Of a stretch of 64,000 nt of DNA, positions 1 through 10,245 are shown piece by piece. Numbering within the stretch: position 1 is the first letter of the stretch; each line of letters begins with the position of its first letter. The notes beneath the pieces are model-generated. The model searched no databases. It was not told the DNA's origin and saw only the letters and a list, made by a program, of their open reading frames with translations. Source of the stretch: a virus. The stretch is from positions 851-64,850 of IMG/VR virus record IMGVR_UViG_3300002855_000209; one strand, written 5' to 3'. A program made the translations under genes and the position numbers.

Positions 1-1040
1 AATGACGCAATAATTGCACCAAAGCCATACTCAGAAGCCGTATTCATCACTGCTAAAAGTGAGCCGCCAATACTGGCATTAATGCCCTCTTTAAAATTCG
101 TCACGACACGTTGGTAATCAAACAAAATTGCAGTAATAATCCCGACAATGAGCGCAAGACCAACCGCCCAGATCGCACCAGTTTTTGCTACATCTACGGT
201 GTAGTCAGCTAAACCGACAGTGGCAAAATCAAAGCCATTTGGGTACCACTCTTTGATTGCTTTAGACAAATATTTATTCATTACTGCAACAAGAATAAGG
301 GGTACAAACGCTAAAAACTGACGAGCTGTACTTCCATTATTTTGCAGAGTCATTTCGGCTTCAATTTCTTGAGATGGCGTATCGTCTACACCAAACCCAG
401 AAAACCCTTCTCCAGCTTTTGCAGCAGCGCGACGACGCCATTCTAAGTAGCTCAAACCCATACATAGAACAAAAATAGCGCCGATAATTCCGAGGAATGG
501 TGCAGCATAAATATTGGTGCCAAAGAATGTAGTTGGAATTACGTTTTGAATTTGTGGCGTACCCGGCAATGCATCCATGGTAAATGTAAATGCACCAAGC
601 GCAATGGTTCCCGGAATTAAACGTTTTGGAATATTGGCTTGTCTAAATAGCTGGTTTGCAAATGGATAAATGGCAAATACAGCAACAAATAAACTTACTC
701 CACTGTAGGTCAAAATTGCACCTAAAAGTACAACGGTTAAAATTGCCTTTTTCGCCCCAATCCATCTTACAATGGTTCTAGCGATAGACTCAGCAATTCC
801 TGACATTTCAACAACTTTACCGAAAATTGCGCCAAGCAAGAATACAAGAAAGTAATCTTTAATAAAGTTCACCATTTTGGGCATAAAAACACCCGAATAA
901 AACGGTAAAACATTGGCCGGGTTTATCAGTAAAACTGCAAGTAAGGCACAAATTGGCGCCATAAGAATGACAGAAAAGCCCTTGTAAGCTGTATACATCA
1001 ACAGCCCAAGTGAAAGTAGAATTACAAATAATTCCCACAT
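1..1040 (-). CDS. GntP family permease (host gene, 3' part outside window)
   Basis: Manual translation from ATG at 1040: MWELFVILLSLGLLMYTAYKGFSVILMAPICALLA...FLLGAIFGKVVEMSG...ALPGTPQIQNVIP; multi-TM, GntP-like motifs; open to window edge. Confidence 0.85.
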   Translation of the reverse strand, partial: MWELFVILLSLGLLMYTAYKGFSVILMAPICALLAVLLINPANVLPFYSGVFMPKMVNFIKDYFLVFLLGAIFGKVVEMSGIAESIARTIVRWIGAKKAILTVVLLGAILTYSGVSLFVAVFAIYPFANQLFRQANIPKRLIPGTIALGAFTFTMDALPGTPQIQNVIPTTFFGTNIYAAPFLGIIGAIFVLCMGLSYLEWRRRAAAKAGEGFSGFGVDDTPSQEIEAEMTLQNNGSTARQFLAFVPLILVAVMNKYLSKAIKEWYPNGFDFATVGLADYTVDVAKTGAIWAVGLALIVGIITAILFDYQRVVTNFKEGINASIGGSLLAVMNTASEYGFGAIIAS

Positions 1041-1366
1041 ATATTCTTTCTCCATAAAGAATAAATATTTTCGAAATTCCATATCTATTTGATTAATTTT
1101 AAGTTTATTAGATTTATTCCGATTTTCTGCAAAATAAATGCAAAATTCCTGCAAAACAGTTAAATCTAATAATCATTTTACTGACATAAGTGACAACATC
1201 TATTTTGAAGCATTCTATAAAGATTTCTTTTTTAAGATGTTGTAATTTTCATGTAAATAACCATCTAGACATTACATCTATTGGAGTCATTTTTGTACTG
1301 ATATTTGAGAGGAATTACAAAAGCATAAAGATATTAATTTTCTAGTTTTTATATGCTCATTACATC

Positions 1367-2953: not shown

Positions 2954-2977
2954 AAAAAAGCACCTTAAGGTGCTTTT
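2954..2977. terminator. Bidirectional intrinsic terminator
   Basis: AAAAAAGCACC-TTAA-GGTGCTTTT between convergent genes. Confidence 0.7.
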
Positions 2978-3956
2978 ATTTTTGTGGCAAATATTCATGT
3001 TGCCATAAAGGTTTTCTTTGGGCTTTTAGTACTCGCATAGGTACACAAGAGTATTCTTCTAACACCATTCTAAACTCAGTTTGATTGACTGGATACGAGC
3101 TAAAAATACTCAATCCAGGACCTATTGAACAAACGTACTTATCAAAACTAATGAAACGTTCATGAGAGAGTGATTTAAAGTATGTATCTGTCTTTGATAT
3201 CAAATTAATTTTGTTGAAACTTCTAGAAAGATTTGAGTTAGCTATATCTGAGAAAATTAAATCAATACCAAAATGTTCATCACTATTTTTTTCACCACCC
3301 GCAGATATAAAAGTTAAATTAAATCTTTTTTTGTATTTCAATAAAAAATTTAAAAAAACAACAACACTTGTCACTAATTTTTTCCCTGAATCCTCTCTTA
3401 AGTTTTGAAAAAAATATCGATCTAATAGAACAATATCTTTCGTATATTTTGCTAAATAATGAAATTTACTTTCCCATATTTTTTCATTATCAGTATCTTT
3501 CATAATATCTGTATTACATTCCAGCTCTGATTTTATAAAATTTTCAGAAATACTTTGGTCATCTATATCCAATATTTCAAAATTTGTCTTATTACAGAAA
3601 CTTATATAGTTAGGTAAACATTTAATCCATTCATTTGTGGTATCTTCTGTTATACCAGTTTTAAAATGCTTATGAAGATTTAACAATTCCTTATAATCTT
3701 TATAATCACAGAAATTTTTCCAATTATTTTTTGATTTAATACTAATATTTTCCTCAAAAGATTCTTTCCAATTTTGATAAACTTCAGGCGGAATTTTATT
3801 TCTTAACTGTTTAAGAATTTCGTCAACATCTTGATTTTCCCCAAGAATCAATACACCATATTTTTTCCATAATTTCAAAAACTCTCTATTTGTCGTCTTT
3901 GTCTTTAATGCATCTGATTCAAAGAAAGATTTATCTAAGGCAAATTCAGTTAACAT
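2976..3956 (-). CDS. Hypothetical protein with C-terminal PLD-like (MIT_C-type) nuclease motifs
   Basis: IVLLDRYFF and HERFISFDKYVCSIGPGLSIF resemble the DPY...HDRxIxxxxGxxxxIGRGL pattern. Confidence 0.5.
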   Translation of the reverse strand: MLTEFALDKSFFESDALKTKTTNREFLKLWKKYGVLILGENQDVDEILKQLRNKIPPEVYQNWKESFEENISIKSKNNWKNFCDYKDYKELLNLHKHFKTGITEDTTNEWIKCLPNYISFCNKTNFEILDIDDQSISENFIKSELECNTDIMKDTDNEKIWESKFHYLAKYTKDIVLLDRYFFQNLREDSGKKLVTSVVVFLNFLLKYKKRFNLTFISAGGEKNSDEHFGIDLIFSDIANSNLSRSFNKINLISKTDTYFKSLSHERFISFDKYVCSIGPGLSIFSSYPVNQTEFRMVLEEYSCVPMRVLKAQRKPLWQHEYLPQK

Positions 3957-3967
3957 ACCACTATCTC

Positions 3968-5374
3968 TTATCTTCTTTCTTTAATACGTTCTTCAAAAAA
4001 ACCTTCAGGCCAAAAATCCATAAAGTCACCATCTTCATCTAGGCGAATTTGAACTACTTCAGCTCCCATCTGCTCTTCTTCTTTATTACTAGGAATTACA
4101 TATAAAATTGATATATCTTCGGGTTTTAATTTTTTTCCATTAATGAGTTTTTTACTTCGAATTAGCTTTTGAATTCTCAACATTAAAGCTTCACTATGTG
4201 TTTCAATAATCCACTGATTATTATTGCAAGTTTCGGCAAAAAACTCAGCTAATTCAGCTTGAAGTTTTGGATGCAAATGAATTTCAGGTTGTTCAACACA
4301 GATTATTGATTCTTTTCTAACAATACCCTCAACTAGAATAGGTAAAATTTGTCCTATACCAAATCCAACATCAAGTGGAGAAACAGATACATTATTTCTT
4401 AAATCTACTAACTCAATTTGAATTAATGGTTCTGAATGTTTAGTACCAACTGGTTTTGGTGTAAATTCATATGGAATATTAAATTTCTTAAACCACTCAT
4501 TAATAAATTTTGATAAATTTTCATTATCACTTTTTAAGAAGTATGCAATATTTTCTCCTTCTTTACCTACGGAAACTTCGAACTCGCTATCAACAGAATA
4601 ATAACGTTTTGGATTACTCCTCAGCGGTCCTAAATAAGATATTTTTTTTAATTCTTTTTGAATAAAATTTGAATTACTTCGGATTTTTTCATTTAGAAAA
4701 TTGTGTATTTTAAACAAATCTTTATGAAAATTCTCTTTCTCAAGTTGTTCCCATACTTGCAAGTGCTTTCGGCCATCGACAGTTATTCGTTTAGGAATAG
4801 AAAATTCTTCTTCAGCCTCATATAAATAAACTCCCATTATTTTACTTATATATTCTTTTGGTAGATTATTTTTATTTAAAGGTAATTTAAAAGTTTTAGG
4901 TATTTCTAAGTCAAAACTCTTAGTAGAGGTTTCATCTCTACTATTGAATTTATTTTTAAAATTATATCCAAAGGAATCTCTCCGATTCTTATCCTCAAAT
5001 TCAATATTTTTTAAATAGGAAAAACCTTGCTTATCGTTATCATCATATGAATAAACAAAACTAGAATTCAATCTTTCAGATGAGCTTACTCGTCCTGTTC
5101 TATTTATAAAGTTTAAACTAAAAGAAATATCTTTTGTAATATCATGTGAGTAGACCATTGTAGAATAACTTCCTACATCTAAAATTTTTTTATCAGAGTA
5201 AATACCACTTTTTAAGTTAGAAAATAAAATAGATTGTTTTAGAACCATTAAAGCATGAATAATAGAGCTTTTACCTGATGAGTTTGCCCCATAAATTAAT
5301 GTAATTGGAGCTAAATCTATTTTTTGCAAATCAGCAAAAGCTTTAAAATTCTCAATACCTATTTGTTTTAACAT
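3968..5374 (-). CDS. ABC/AAA_15-21 ATPase with DUF3696-like C-terminus (OLD/Menshen NsnB-like)
   Basis: Walker A GANSSGKS; signature DVGFGIGQ; Walker B/D-loop VEQPEIHLHP; H-loop IETHSE; C-terminal LDEDGDFMDFWPEGFF. Confidence 0.85.
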   Translation of the reverse strand: MLKQIGIENFKAFADLQKIDLAPITLIYGANSSGKSSIIHALMVLKQSILFSNLKSGIYSDKKILDVGSYSTMVYSHDITKDISFSLNFINRTGRVSSSERLNSSFVYSYDDNDKQGFSYLKNIEFEDKNRRDSFGYNFKNKFNSRDETSTKSFDLEIPKTFKLPLNKNNLPKEYISKIMGVYLYEAEEEFSIPKRITVDGRKHLQVWEQLEKENFHKDLFKIHNFLNEKIRSNSNFIQKELKKISYLGPLRSNPKRYYSVDSEFEVSVGKEGENIAYFLKSDNENLSKFINEWFKKFNIPYEFTPKPVGTKHSEPLIQIELVDLRNNVSVSPLDVGFGIGQILPILVEGIVRKESIICVEQPEIHLHPKLQAELAEFFAETCNNNQWIIETHSEALMLRIQKLIRSKKLINGKKLKPEDISILYVIPSNKEEEQMGAEVVQIRLDEDGDFMDFWPEGFFEERIKERR

Positions 5375-5418
5375 GTAAGTTACCTAAAGTCTTAATATTA
5401 GCTTTATAAAATTCTTAA

Positions 5419-5916
5419 TTACTGAATTTGATTATTTTCTGAAAATACTAATTTAGTCATTTCATTTAAATAACTACAATCAGCATAATCAAAAACCGAA
5501 ATTGATAAGTTTAATGCATCAATAATATTTCTAATCCCTTTATCATATGTCACGATCATTTTTGCATTGTTTGCCAGTGCAATACCCAAAATCTGAATAT
5601 CCACCTTTACTTTCTGGTGAGGATTTTGAGATTTTTGATTCTTAGGAAGCTTTTTATAATCTTTATAGATACGTGCAGATATTAAAGCTGATTTAGCATC
5701 AAAATCTAGATTCTTAAATTTAGAATTTGGGCTTAAGAGCATGCTACTTCTAGATTCATTTTCATCGCCAGCAATGAACTCCGCTATTACTGGCATGGGT
5801 AAAGCAAGTGTCAAGCGTTCACATTGCTTAAGATAAGCAACCAGATTTAAATACTCAGCACTAGCCTTGTCAGCCGTCAATAATGTTATTAACGCATTAG
5901 TATCCAAGATGATCAA
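5419..5916 (-). CDS. PIN-domain ribonuclease
   Basis: Acidic quartet IILDTN, PVIAEF, KVDIQI, TYDKG; likely TTG start at 5916 overlapping upstream stop (TTGA) with AAGGAG RBS; track start is 5937. Confidence 0.8.
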   Translation of the reverse strand: MIILDTNALITLLTADKASAEYLNLVAYLKQCERLTLALPMPVIAEFIAGDENESRSSMLLSPNSKFKNLDFDAKSALISARIYKDYKKLPKNQKSQNPHQKVKVDIQILGIALANNAKMIVTYDKGIRNIIDALNLSISVFDYADCSYLNEMTKLVFSENNQIQ

Positions 5917-6731
5917 TCCTGACGCTCCTTCAGCCACTCGGCAATAGGATCATCAAATTTAGTCCAATTGGATGCCCCCTGCGCTCTAAAACTATCAATC
6001 CATTGATCAAGGCCAATATCTTCAATCACAATAAATTTAGTAATCGAGTATTTCTTGAGTTTTAATTGATAAGTGTTAGTTTTCGATGAATATGATGCTA
6101 TGCCTTCAAATCTTAGACATTTGTTAGTATTAAAGTAGGGATGTAATTCTTCTAATAATTTATGAGAACATTCTGCTGGGACTTCATCACCGTTATTTAA
6201 AATAATAGTGATGTGATCTGACTTATCTTTACCTTTTTGCAGTCGAGTTAAGTACCCATCTATTGATTCGTCTTGAGTGAAACTCTCTTCATAATCAAGT
6301 TCGGGAACAGAATACAAAATTTGAGATGGTTGGTATGGTTGCCCTTCTTTCAAATGTCCATTCGAAATTTCAGCATTGTGAAAACCATACTTACTTAATT
6401 CTTTCTGTATACGAGTAACTTGTTTCCTCTTTAATGCTGTGTCCTTAAGGACATTAGCCATAGCAATATTTTTGCAATCTTGAGGAACTGTTACTGCTAT
6501 AGTTGTCGAACCTTCTTTAATTGTTTTGAAACTAGCTTGTTTAACACCAACGATTTGACCTAGTGCAGATAATAAATTTGCAACACTCGAAATTTCTAGA
6601 TCATGAAGATGTCCGTCATGGATTTTTAAGACGAAATCAAGATTATCCTCGAGTTCTTGATGAACTGATGAATCCTCGAGATCAAGTCTATCCTGAGTAG
6701 GCTTTCTACCCTTTTTATCCAATTTTGTCAT
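5913..6731 (-). CDS. Hypothetical protein, partner of PIN gene (putative antitoxin-like)
   Basis: 272-aa ORF translationally coupled to the PIN gene; no catalytic motif recognised. Confidence 0.65.
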   Translation of the reverse strand: MTKLDKKGRKPTQDRLDLEDSSVHQELEDNLDFVLKIHDGHLHDLEISSVANLLSALGQIVGVKQASFKTIKEGSTTIAVTVPQDCKNIAMANVLKDTALKRKQVTRIQKELSKYGFHNAEISNGHLKEGQPYQPSQILYSVPELDYEESFTQDESIDGYLTRLQKGKDKSDHITIILNNGDEVPAECSHKLLEELHPYFNTNKCLRFEGIASYSSKTNTYQLKLKKYSITKFIVIEDIGLDQWIDSFRAQGASNWTKFDDPIAEWLKERQD

Positions 6732-6900
6732 TTTCGGCTATCTAAAAAAACCTTGCTTATAGTATGTTCAAAGTAATAAACAAATGAAAGCAAACTTACT
6801 AAATTAACTATTCCTCGTTTTATGACTAATATAATGATTTGTCAACCAAAATATTTGACTATTTCAAAGGTTTGTCAACTAACAACCTTAGCCCAATATA

Positions 6901-7715: not shown

Positions 7716-8531
7716 TTGGCAACCCCATATATAACTATTGGCTGCCCCACCACTGGCGGTGGTCAAGTAATTTCTGGGAACAGTATGTTTCTAGTCGACG
7801 GAATTCCTGTTGCGTGTGTCGGTGATAAAGCTACATGCCCAACTCATAAAGTTGTCGCCACTATTGTATCGGGCGATCCGTGCATGCAAATCTTTGGTAA
7901 AGCTGCTGCTCGAGTAAATGATTCACTCTCTTGTGGTTGTAAATTACTGCCTCAACAAAACTTAGTTGTGCAAGACAACGGCGGTAGCGCTGTATCATCT
8001 ACTAAATCTTCTTCAACTTCAATGTCACAAAAACAGCAGTCTACTGATAGTTTTAGAGAAGATAAATATGAAAACTATTACATTGAACAGTATAAAACTG
8101 ATGTCTACATTAGCCATAAAGCTGTTCTTTTAGGTGATGAAGGTGTAACACCTTTGGATGGAGCTGTGAGCTATTTTCTAAACTACAAAGTTCAAGGTAA
8201 GGAATTATTTTTAAGTGTAGTTATTAATGCAGCTCCATTGAGCCACAAGGGAACTGTTTACCCTTTTGGGACCGCAATTGTTTCACGGGAAGGTAAAGAG
8301 ATTGCCAGAACCAAGTTGAAAAGCGATCAAGGATATTGGCCAACAGATAAAAATAAGGCCCCTTTGGGAAGTTGCACTATCAAGTTGCCAGAACCAAATT
8401 TACAGCTTGTTGATGTAGAGCTTGAACTAGGATATACCGCAGTTATTTCAGATACAGTAGGTTCTGTGCATCCAATGCCCCCTATTAAAAAATATAAGTT
8501 CTCCTTAAATTCTGCGGCTCGCAAGGTATAA
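7716..8531 (+). CDS. PAAR-domain protein with C-terminal extension
   Basis: YITIGCPTTGGGQV...VACVGDKATCPTH...AAARVNDSLSCGCKL PAAR pattern; Ser-rich linker; ~170-aa extension; TTG start. Confidence 0.85.
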   Translation: MATPYITIGCPTTGGGQVISGNSMFLVDGIPVACVGDKATCPTHKVVATIVSGDPCMQIFGKAAARVNDSLSCGCKLLPQQNLVVQDNGGSAVSSTKSSSTSMSQKQQSTDSFREDKYENYYIEQYKTDVYISHKAVLLGDEGVTPLDGAVSYFLNYKVQGKELFLSVVINAAPLSHKGTVYPFGTAIVSREGKEIARTKLKSDQGYWPTDKNKAPLGSCTIKLPEPNLQLVDVELELGYTAVISDTVGSVHPMPPIKKYKFSLNSAARKV

Positions 8532-8537
8532 AAAGTT

Positions 8538-9221
8538 ATGAATAAACTATTAACGATTCTGTTATTAAGTGCTGCGGTTACTGCATGTAACAACCCTAAT
8601 AGCGCGACCAAAATTGCACAAGTGCAGAGTGAGCAATCGAATAATTCAAAAGAAGTATTAAAACCCCTTGTGGCAGAGTTTGATGAAATTATGAGTTCTC
8701 TTCAGACTGAAGCTGACATTACATCTACGCAAGCAAAATTGGAAAAACTTTTAAAGAAATTTCCAGATGACAATGACTCAAGCATACAAGTGCAAAAGTT
8801 AAAATTAAAAGTCCTGCTTCAACTAGGCTATTTAAATGAAGCGGATATTTTGGCAACAAAAATTCTTGCTTTAGATAGCACGGCAAGCATTCAAGAAACA
8901 CAGTGTTTAATTCAAAGAAAATTGCAAAAGCCAGAAAGCCAAATTAATAGCTGTTATGAAAAAGCAGCTAAGCTATATCAAGCACAATACGAAAAATTAA
9001 GTAATGATAATCCACAAAAGCAATATACTCTCTGGTCAAGTTACGCTGCCATGTACCAAGGTGGTCATACTAAATATAAACAAAAGTTGAAAGATCTAGT
9101 TAATGCTCAAACCACTGAAGATGAGAAGCATACTTTTAATACGATGTATGAGAACGTAGTGGACCCAACAGTTATTAAAGAAATTCTTGAATCTATGCCT
9201 TATAAGCAAAAAGCTCATTGA
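8538..9221 (+). CDS. Helical (TPR-like) lipoprotein, putative immunity protein
   Basis: Lipobox VTAC; 6 bp after the PAAR gene; distant paralogue of 9342-9971. Confidence 0.6.
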   Translation: MNKLLTILLLSAAVTACNNPNSATKIAQVQSEQSNNSKEVLKPLVAEFDEIMSSLQTEADITSTQAKLEKLLKKFPDDNDSSIQVQKLKLKVLLQLGYLNEADILATKILALDSTASIQETQCLIQRKLQKPESQINSCYEKAAKLYQAQYEKLSNDNPQKQYTLWSSYAAMYQGGHTKYKQKLKDLVNAQTTEDEKHTFNTMYENVVDPTVIKEILESMPYKQKAH

Positions 9222-9341
9222 AGATCATTTTTTACATCCATATATTAGAATAGCTCTAATTATTTAGGGCTTTTTATAGTGCTTTAATCTAAATGTGGTC
9301 CAGAAAAAGGCATACTCCCTAAAGTAGACTCAATCATAAGT

Positions 9342-9971
9342 ATGAAAAAGTATTTAACCATATTTATCGTTTATTCATCATTTCTTGGTGGCTGTAGCAA
9401 TGTTTCGGATAGTAAAAAACAAAGCGAAATCACAGCACCTAAGCCGATATCTGCCGAAGATCAGAAAATTATAGATAAACATAATGAGTATGTTGAAAAA
9501 TATTCTATGGAAGATAGAGAAGTCTTCCAGAAGCACATGCGGGAAATACTCCCTGAGGTCGATAAAATTACGAACAAACGTAAACGTGAACTACTTCAAA
9601 TGAATATTTATATGATTTTGAATGACTATGAGAAAGCACACGCATTGAATGATAAGCAACTTGCGGAGAAGTCAAATGACACAGCAAGACTTACATTTAG
9701 ATGTCAGTTGTTTACCATTCAAGGGAAAGAAGCAACTTTGGTTAATAAATGCTATGACCATGTTGCAGAGGTTCTAAAAATGGAACTAGGCAAACCAGAA
9801 AACAAGACCGATCCTGATTATAAGATAGGCGAGTTCTCATACTTGTATGCAAAATATAAAGCTGGACACCCTGAGTATAAAGAGAAAATGCAAGAGTACA
9901 TTGCAGAAATTAAAGATGAAAAATTAAAGGCAACTTTAACATCACTTTATAATGTGGAATTTGAAAATTAG
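9342..9971 (+). CDS. Helical lipoprotein, putative immunity paralogue
   Basis: Lipobox LGGC; shares CQL...CY(D/E) and Y..GH..YK.K motifs with 8538-9221. Confidence 0.6.
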   Translation: MKKYLTIFIVYSSFLGGCSNVSDSKKQSEITAPKPISAEDQKIIDKHNEYVEKYSMEDREVFQKHMREILPEVDKITNKRKRELLQMNIYMILNDYEKAHALNDKQLAEKSNDTARLTFRCQLFTIQGKEATLVNKCYDHVAEVLKMELGKPENKTDPDYKIGEFSYLYAKYKAGHPEYKEKMQEYIAEIKDEKLKATLTSLYNVEFEN

Positions 9972-10245
9972 ACAAAAATAGCCCTGATTCCTCAGGGCTT
10001 TTTCTTGAATCATTATTTTTACTTTTTTATAAAGACAATATTTTTCAGTAGTTTATAAAATAATAGCCTGTAATTATAGTAGATATAAAAATCATGTAAT
10101 TTAAAAATATAAAAAAACAAACGGTTATGAGTTTTTTACCAATTGATACAAAAAAGGCTTCCATAAATAAACAAAAACAAGATAAGAATATAGATTATAA
10201 AATCACTATGTAACTATTTTTAGCTTGAGAAACGAATTACCTCTT

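Follow-up and report, generated by a model that had tools for sequence, protein, structure and literature searches.

Among the described anti-phage systems, Menshen, composed of NsnA, NsnB and NsnC, offers the closest comparison for one half of the locus reported here, a four-gene block in a 64,000-nt stretch of the IMG/VR record IMGVR_UViG_3300002855_000209 (this whole stretch is hereafter called the window). The domains of Menshen were analyzed by Li et al. (2025; PMC12065111), who modeled NsnB as a tetramer whose paired DUF3696 tails clamp the inPIN domain of NsnC, as in the solved assemblies of PARIS and Septu, and who predicted NsnC proteins with a PB-PLD1 domain to be nucleases. In the same article Menshen is described as swapping its sensor and effector parts, and its anti-phage activity is given as experimentally validated (Millman 2022 as cited in PMC12065111). 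An OLD/AAA_15-type ABC ATPase that adjoins a nuclease-type effector also characterizes PARIS (AriA-AriB), Septu (PtuA-PtuB), AbiL and Gabija, and a common logic is likely, in which an ATPase oligomer holds and then releases the effector. The other half of the block is best compared with VapBC, whose PIN toxin is paired with a small DNA-binding antitoxin of the AbrB, RHH or Phd type. We find that the block combines a VapBC-like pair, gene 1 and a PIN nuclease gene (module A), with a Menshen-like pair without NsnA, an ATPase gene and gene 4 (module B).

Two separately inherited gene pairs

The four open reading frames (ORFs) are co-oriented on the minus strand at window positions 2976 to 6731, in the order gene 1, PIN, ATPase and gene 4.

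5913 to 6731, minus strand: gene 1 (P0001), 272 aa
5419 to 5916, minus strand: PIN nuclease gene, 165 aa from the TTG at 5916 (alternatively 5419 to 5937, 172 aa from a GTG)
3968 to 5374, minus strand: ATPase gene, 468 aa
2976 to 3956, minus strand: gene 4 (P0004), 326 aa
5454 to 5467, no strand: junction between the modules, where homology ends in loci with gene 1 and PIN only

PIN and the ATPase gene are separated by 44 nt (5375-5418) and the ATPase gene and gene 4 by 11 nt (3957-3967), while the overlap of gene 1 with PIN amounts to 25 nt with the GTG start and to 4 nt with the TTG start. Judged from sequence features, the TTG at 5916 is the more likely of the two, since an AGGAG lies 6 to 10 nt upstream of it, since its TTGA overlaps the stop codon of gene 1 and since the gene calls of relatives use the same start. 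Because each of the four has conserved homologues elsewhere, all are real genes and not chance frames. Our recovery of the ORFs, of their gaps and of a hairpin at 2956-2977 bears out the original prediction, made from the sequence alone, of four co-oriented, low-GC genes with one overlap, gaps of 44 and 11 nt and a single terminator.

The reading that we prefer, with a probability of about 0.68, is that the locus consists of two autonomous two-gene conflict modules stacked in a variable slot where an Acinetobacter prophage ends, with an Arc/Bro regulatory module as their neighbour. Sequence identities among the window and related loci (numbered L001 onward) are discordant between the two halves. 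Compared with L017, gene 1 is 96% and PIN 88% identical, and the ATPase pair is absent. Compared with L001, gene 1 and PIN are 72% and 59% identical and the ATPase and gene 4 are 85% and 75% identical. Between L005 and L008, gene 1 (94%) and PIN (90%) are close, and the ATPase (41%) and gene 4 (29%) are distant. Thus, across the loci compared, the two genes co-vary within each pair. DNA homology starts at window positions 6882 to 6885 in nearly all related loci compared and ends near the 3' end of PIN in L017 (5456), L023 (5454) and L006 (5467); in L001 and L005 it runs through gene 4. The GC content steps from 33.9% in gene 1 and PIN to 27.3% in the ATPase gene and gene 4, in a window of 36.1%. 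These discordant identities, together with the cassette boundaries and the GC step, argue that the two pairs are separately inherited cassettes.

Each pair also occurs by itself. PIN follows gene 1 in all 12 gene 1 lineages found, down to a metagenome-assembled genome (MAG) with 28% identity, and seven of these lineages (L006/7, L010-12, L017/18, L019, L022, L023 and L024) have no ATPase pair; some of the stand-alone gene 1-PIN pairs adjoin integrases or a P4-like island. We fetched 52 ATPase loci from Pseudomonadota, Myxococcota, Actinomycetota, Chloroflexota, Latescibacterota, Planctomycetota, Bacillota and other phyla, and a gene 4-family gene lies directly downstream of the ATPase in about 42 of 51. 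No ORF with the DUF262 motif DGxQR or QRxxxW was found upstream of the 51 related ATPases, and 10 upstream ORFs that were tested belong to unrelated families, among them proB, pyruvate kinase, catalase, MFS, UvrD, ResIII and a methylase. Only in Acinetobacter prophage loci does the PIN pair adjoin one of the ATPases fetched. L014 and L015/16 are stand-alone ATPase-effector pairs, and PIN is missing from two loci in the window's own ATPase clade: L026 of A. lwoffii, where the pair lies behind proB, and L013, whose upstream 184 nt contain no ORF. The support for this Acinetobacter clade in the ATPase tree is only 85/81, a topology compatible with one or two origins of the adjacency.

The position behind PIN is a variable cargo slot, since unrelated genes occupy it in L017 and L023. 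In L017 (A. lactucae) an unrelated 363-aa ORF of no family (8319-9410) starts 6 nt after the PIN stop codon; in L023 (A. gyllenbergii) a 507-aa SEC-C-motif protein (8498-10021) is followed by Arc-like and Bro-N genes. Both the 363-aa and the 507-aa genes are candidate alternative defence genes. In L020 (A. rongchengensis; 8333-8758), gene 1 and PIN are followed only by a 141-aa N-terminal fragment of the ATPase, which looks like a decayed four-gene arrangement. L018 (DALZNT010000224.1), a 3.1-kb contig binned in a 'Clostridium sp.' MAG, carries a gene 1-PIN pair 96% identical to that of the window and probably stems from Acinetobacter or a phage through mis-binning or contamination.

The original prediction had offered two readings of the block, a new composite system or two stacked systems. 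The occurrence of each half alone, the discordant identities and the separate cassette boundaries favor stacking and speak against the composite. Its further suggestion, that the PIN pair takes the place of NsnA, finds no support in the sense of a functional replacement, since the ATPase-effector pair is widely distributed and has no conserved upstream partner. The locus illustrates cleanly how defence-type cassettes are stacked and shuffled as modules in one slot of an Acinetobacter prophage. It overturns no current concept; its value lies in cataloguing and in the well-defined constructs that it offers for testing.

Gene 1 and PIN form a VapBC-like pair

The PIN protein matches the Pfam PIN family (6.8e-8). 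Its residues D5, E46, D106 and D125 (165-aa numbering) are invariant in 11 homologues with identities down to 35%, in agreement with the intact PIN motif that had been expected. Gene 1 has no match in Pfam, PADLOC or NCBIfam and matches phrog_19868, a PHROG of unknown function; a Protein Atlas search returned hypothetical clusters only, and a search of AFDB clusters returned uncharacterized proteins only. Its AlphaFold2 (AF2) model (predicted local distance difference test [pLDDT], 75) comprises a disordered basic N-terminal tail (residues 1 to 27), an alpha/beta domain (31 to 113), an OB-fold (about 150 to 237) and C-terminal helices that end in a conserved DPIxEWLKER tail. The OB-fold matches structures of SSB, PriB and RPA, with a best Z score of 9.6.

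For the complex of gene 1 with PIN, the prediction gave an interface score (ipSAE) of 0.82, compared with 0.00 for the best of three controls; of 80 solved complexes, 58 reach the mark set for this score, as do 2 of 110 mismatched pairs. The contacts agree between the three runs to at least 92%, with a partner pLDDT of at least 82. On the gene 1 side, the predicted interface consists of residues 149-158, 207-223 and 234-272. Residues 6-7, 46, 105 and 124-125 are among those contacted in PIN, and they coincide with or adjoin the catalytic acids. The model supports binding of PIN by gene 1 in a manner consistent with an antitoxin-like occlusion of the active site, and gene 1 is likely the antitoxin-like partner of a toxin-like PIN component.

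Three features liken module A to VapBC: a PIN toxin whose D-E-D-D set is complete, a partner gene that is upstream and overlapping, an arrangement of translational coupling, and a C-terminal region of the partner that is predicted to lie over the PIN active site. The partner itself sets it apart. With 272 aa, an OB-fold and an alpha/beta domain, gene 1 differs from the small DNA-binding VapBC antitoxins, and profile and structure searches revealed no known antitoxin fold or family in it. PIN, moreover, scores 15.8 bits on the NCBIfam VapC equivalog, whose cut-off is 80. A literature search for a PIN toxin with an OB-fold antitoxin brought up nothing of relevance beyond PMC12065111. We classify module A as VapBC-like, with a 272-aa OB-fold protein, undescribed so far, as the partner of PIN.

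We propose that module A would act in the manner of a type II toxin-antitoxin system or of an abortive-infection pair. Gene 1 would cover the catalytic groove of PIN with its OB-fold and its conserved C-terminal helices and thereby keep the putative RNase inactive; if gene 1 were lost or titrated, PIN would be free to cut RNA. As trigger, a phage protein may engage the OB-fold or the N-terminal domain, or a nucleic acid may do so. A PIN partner with an OB-fold could link the sensing of nucleic acids to the release of the toxin. With low probability, gene 1 represents a new class of large, ligand-sensing OB-fold antitoxins that make a PIN toxin-antitoxin pair a phage sensor.

In one A. soli genome (GCA_900406795.1; L009, 6795-7313), PIN is split into ORFs of 81 and 76 aa, and gene 1, the ATPase gene and a 348-aa gene 4 homologue are intact. 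The sister strain, L008, has a whole PIN, and L009 is a natural knock-out of the putative toxin.

The ATPase and gene 4 form a sensor-less variant of Menshen

The ATPase matches Pfam AAA_15 (5.6e-27) and DUF3696 (1.5e-5), the latter through a C-terminal helix at residues 416 to 462. Its best PADLOC profile is NsnB (6.8e-58), followed by PDC-M55A (1.7e-53) and HEC-03B (1.6e-41), both of which match its C-terminal half; further PADLOC matches are AriA, AbiLi, PtuA and GajA. The anticipated DUF3696-type ABC ATPase is confirmed by these matches. Walker A is intact, G29-x4-GKS (GANSSGKS29), and the other motifs are GPLR249, GFGIGQ337, IICVEQPE357 and ETHSE391. Three of them deviate from the usual form: EQ instead of DE in Walker B, GxG (GFGIGQ) for SGG, and R (GPLR) for the Q of the Q-motif. 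The same deviations were described for NsnB (Li et al. 2025; PMC12065111). Its sequence places the ATPase among the ABC ATPases of the NsnB type, DUF3696 tail included. We considered Septu, PARIS, Gabija and AbiL as well and rejected membership in them, since their ATPase profiles lie far behind NsnB in score and their effectors have another fold.

Gene 4 itself has no match in Pfam, PADLOC, NCBIfam or PHROG. A word-based search for relatives yielded only 5 clusters, whereas an exhaustive profile search yielded 306 representatives at E<=1e-3, which are mostly full-length and about 320 aa long. In an alignment of 60 of these sequences, D179, R267 and G281 are invariant, H265 is conserved in 97% and D272 in about 80%. 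These residues belong to the motifs D179-R-Y and H265-x-R267-x4-D272-x6-G-x-G281, with the consensus IxDRY ... HDRxIRFD. Among the 60 members, 13 match Pfam MIT_C (best, 6.3e-7), 4 to 5 match the PADLOC profile NsnC and 1 matches the BrxL profile. The AF2 model of gene 4 (pLDDT, 97.3; predicted template modeling score, 0.92) divides the protein into two domains.

3519 to 3956, minus strand: gene 4 N-domain, residues 1 to 146, a PIN-like fold; an 'inPIN'-type adaptor predicted to dock on DUF3696 tails
2976 to 3518, minus strand: gene 4 C-domain, residues 147 to 326, an MIT_C/PLD-fold effector domain with D179-R-Y and HxR(x)4D

Structural matches of the N-domain, with Z scores of 4.0 to 5.6, comprise the PIN domains of Chp1, HARP, SMG5 and Nmd4 (3tix_D, 5.6; 7f3e_E, 5.1; SMG5 PIN, 4.4; Nmd4, 4.0). 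It keeps only two acidic positions, D8 and E127 (D or E in 97% and 100% of the 60 sequences), for which residual metal binding or a role at an interface is possible; D8 lies at the end of beta-1, where PIN domains have their first catalytic Asp. The nearest structure to the C-domain is the MIT_C domain of MITD1 (Foldseek, 1.2e-5; 2ymb_A, Z 10.6, root mean square deviation 3.4 over 134 aligned residues), and SauUSI, NgoAVII, Zucchini, NucT, Nuc, BfiI and Tdp1 come after it. Compared with the PLD superfamily, gene 4 has the PLD fold with the motif HxR(x)4D(x)6GxG, an invariant R standing where HxK(x)4D has K. The prediction of a PLD-like protein with an HxR motif is therefore sustained, with an MIT_C fold at Z 10.6. 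MITD1 MIT_C and the BrxL C-terminal domain share the HDR-type motif with gene 4, whose best structural match spans residues 146 to 300, but MITD1 is a eukaryotic, ESCRT-III-binding and membrane-binding protein without an ATPase partner. Judged from the model, the architecture of gene 4 is that of the 'inPIN + PB-PLD1' NsnC of PMC12065111. The earlier statement that the architecture of the locus is not recognizable as described thus stands for the juxtaposition of the four genes and fails for the domain architecture of gene 4.

Module B resembles Menshen in both of its proteins. The ATPase has the hallmarks of NsnB, namely, the AAA_15 ABC fold, the DUF3696 tail and the motif deviations, and gene 4 is NsnC-like: its PIN-like N-domain lacks the full acidic tetrad, and its PLD domain, similar to MIT_C, has both an H-[DE]-R motif and an acidic residue that follows a beta-strand. 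Unlike Menshen, module B has no NsnA (ParB-DUF262 plus ParBDB), here or in about 50 related loci, P0004 itself matches no NsnC profile, and the operon has two genes, so that PADLOC and DefenseFinder rules requiring three genes would miss it. No DUF262 match was found in the four proteins, and PF03235 was not found in the 70.9-kb provirus record, as the designation of the locus as Menshen-like without NsnA had implied. Since NsnA, which defines Menshen, is absent, we do not file module B as Menshen; it is a sensor-less two-gene variant. The published Menshen census used ParB-DUF262 as its search seed (PMC12065111), and loci of this type are therefore invisible to it.

Two PADLOC candidates, PDC-M55 and HEC-03, both uncharacterized, are also close in that their ATPase profiles match strongly. 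Their partner profiles have no match in P0004 or in 60 of its relatives, so only one of the two components of each candidate is found, and a literature search on either found nothing relevant beyond PMC12065111. From PARIS, Septu, AbiL and Gabija, module B differs in its effector, which has a PLD/MIT_C fold with a PIN-like adaptor and not a Toprim or HNH domain, and in the DUF3696 tail of its ATPase.

By analogy with the NsnB4-NsnC2 model, PARIS and Septu, the ATPase oligomer of module B would clamp the PIN-like N-domain of gene 4 between its DUF3696 tails. On a phage cue, the binding or hydrolysis of ATP would release or activate the PLD-fold domain with its single HxR motif, and the ATPase itself may be the sensor, as no NsnA is present. 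Single-motif PLD proteins dimerize to form one active site, and with a single HxR motif per chain, the gene 4 effector must presumably do the same. That effector most likely cuts nucleic acid, judging from its modeled fold, with an action on membranes or lipids as the alternative. That the two proteins of module B bind each other, and that either module acts against phages, on its particular substrates and in response to its particular triggers, we infer. The NsnB/NsnC-like two-gene operons constitute a large and phylogenetically wide family that would work without a DUF262 sensor; if such loci defend, infection must be sensed by the ATPase itself, the role that AriA has in PARIS.

Alternative explanations

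Several observations weigh against two autonomous modules of the kind proposed. The modules adjoin in 4 of the 12 gene 1 lineages (the window, L001, L005 and L008), and one more, L020, has an ATPase remnant. In A. soli, gene 1 and PIN adjoin a deeply divergent ATPase pair (43%/30% identity to that of the window). Besides a shared hotspot, functional synergy could underlie this recurrent adjacency, and polymorphic systems such as Menshen shuffle parts within one system (PMC12065111), which makes discordance compatible with cooperation. PIN and the ATPase gene probably share one transcript, as the region scanned contains no hairpin or terminator between them. With regard to the individual proteins, the Z score of 9.6 for the gene 1 OB-fold is only slightly over the background noted by the tool, and to our knowledge, no catalytic activity has been demonstrated for MIT_C, MITD1 being a membrane binder. 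One could therefore see in the block a single integrated four-gene system, in which gene 1 and PIN replace NsnA as the sensor and/or provide a second effector arm of a Menshen-like ATPase-PLD core; the tight packing without an internal terminator, an order kept in the four lineages despite the divergence of the ATPase pair, the L020 remnant and the known exchange of sensor and effector parts in Menshen (PMC12065111) would all fit. We consider this rather improbable, given that the halves occur alone even in the Acinetobacter ATPase clade (L026 and L013) and even with a 96%-identical gene 1 (L017), that unrelated genes fill the slot after PIN elsewhere, that roughly 42 ATPase-effector pairs from many phyla stand alone and do without an upstream partner and that the GC content differs between the halves. 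Unlikely as well is a union of the two pairs, in Acinetobacter prophages, into a cooperating four-gene unit in which, for example, gene 1 senses phage single-stranded DNA or RNA and licenses both PIN and the ATPase-held PLD effector; if true, it would explain why two deeply divergent ATPase pairs each lie directly behind gene 1 and PIN.

Stacked modules need not be defensive. Both pairs might be selfish addiction or stabilization modules that serve the prophage or island by post-segregational killing and not anti-phage defences, a view with which the toxin-antitoxin anatomy of module A (an overlapping upstream partner and a predicted interface covering the active site), the position at a prophage end, the persistence in A. 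soli as a small island between housekeeping genes and the split PIN beside an intact gene 1 in L009, as expected of a dispensable or costly toxin, agree. The ATPase, however, is closest to profiles of defence systems and candidates (NsnB, PDC-M55A, HEC-03B and AriA), Menshen is validated as anti-phage in the report cited above, and the block shares its variable prophage moron slot with exclusion genes, SieB-like ones among them; as toxin-antitoxin and abortive-infection roles are, in addition, not mutually exclusive, we regard addiction in place of defence as very unlikely. Also unlikely, finally, is a gene 4 effector that is not a nuclease and whose MIT_C-type PLD domain acts on, or only binds, membranes or phospholipids and so damages the membrane. 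Its best structural match, the MIT_C domain of MITD1, binds membranes and has no nuclease activity shown, phospholipases D and a phosphatidylserine synthase are also among the matches, and R replaces the K of the HKD motif; but many matches of similar Z are the single-HKD nucleases named above (SauUSI to Tdp1), the PIN-like N-domain suggests recognition of nucleic acid, the protein has no transmembrane or lipid-anchoring segment, and Li et al. predict a nuclease (PMC12065111). The two stacked conflict modules, with a nucleic acid-cutting effector in module B, remain our preferred reading.

Transcription signals and flanking genes

Two regions that may govern transcription frame the block.

6850 to 6885, minus strand: promoter-like region at the left boundary of the gene 1-PIN cassette, TTGACA-17-AATATT, a sigma-70 match
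2956 to 2977, no strand: bidirectional terminator hairpin with T-run, directly after the gene 4 stop codon and common to the convergent Arc-like gene

The best promoter-like match of the scanned region, at 6878 to 6850, agrees with sigma-70 at 10 of 12 positions. The sequence GTTGACAAA occurs twice upstream of gene 1 as direct copies about 30 nt apart, within window positions 6840 to 6885, and each copy contains a TTGACA -35-like box; the paired copies could be tandem promoters or autoregulatory operator sites. Going by these signals, all four genes are probably co-transcribed from the gene 1 promoter. A search of sequencing runs for the locus found none with more than 6% of the words sampled from it, and no RNA run among them.

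The window is part of a 70.9-kb IMG/VR provirus record, near one end of which the block lies. On one flank are an Arc-like repressor (2585-2950) and a Bro-N/Ant antirepressor (1431-2246), and on the other are small membrane ORFs and a PAAR protein. An ORF that runs off the start of the window (3-1154) encodes a multi-pass, transporter-like membrane protein and is probably host flank, in which case the Bro/Arc module and the four genes would form the outermost part of the provirus. L001, L005, L008 and L023 have the same Arc and Bro pair beside the block, in spite of their different phages. We considered whether the window prophage is the P2-like phage of L001 and rejected this, as it has no gpU, gpD or tail X matches and only Bro matches, at 30%. 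In A. soli L008 (3998-12236), the small ORFs, the four genes, Arc and Bro make up an islet, about 8 kb long and bounded by liv-type ABC transporter genes and by an MFS gene, which looks like a prophage remnant keeping only its regulatory and defence-type end.

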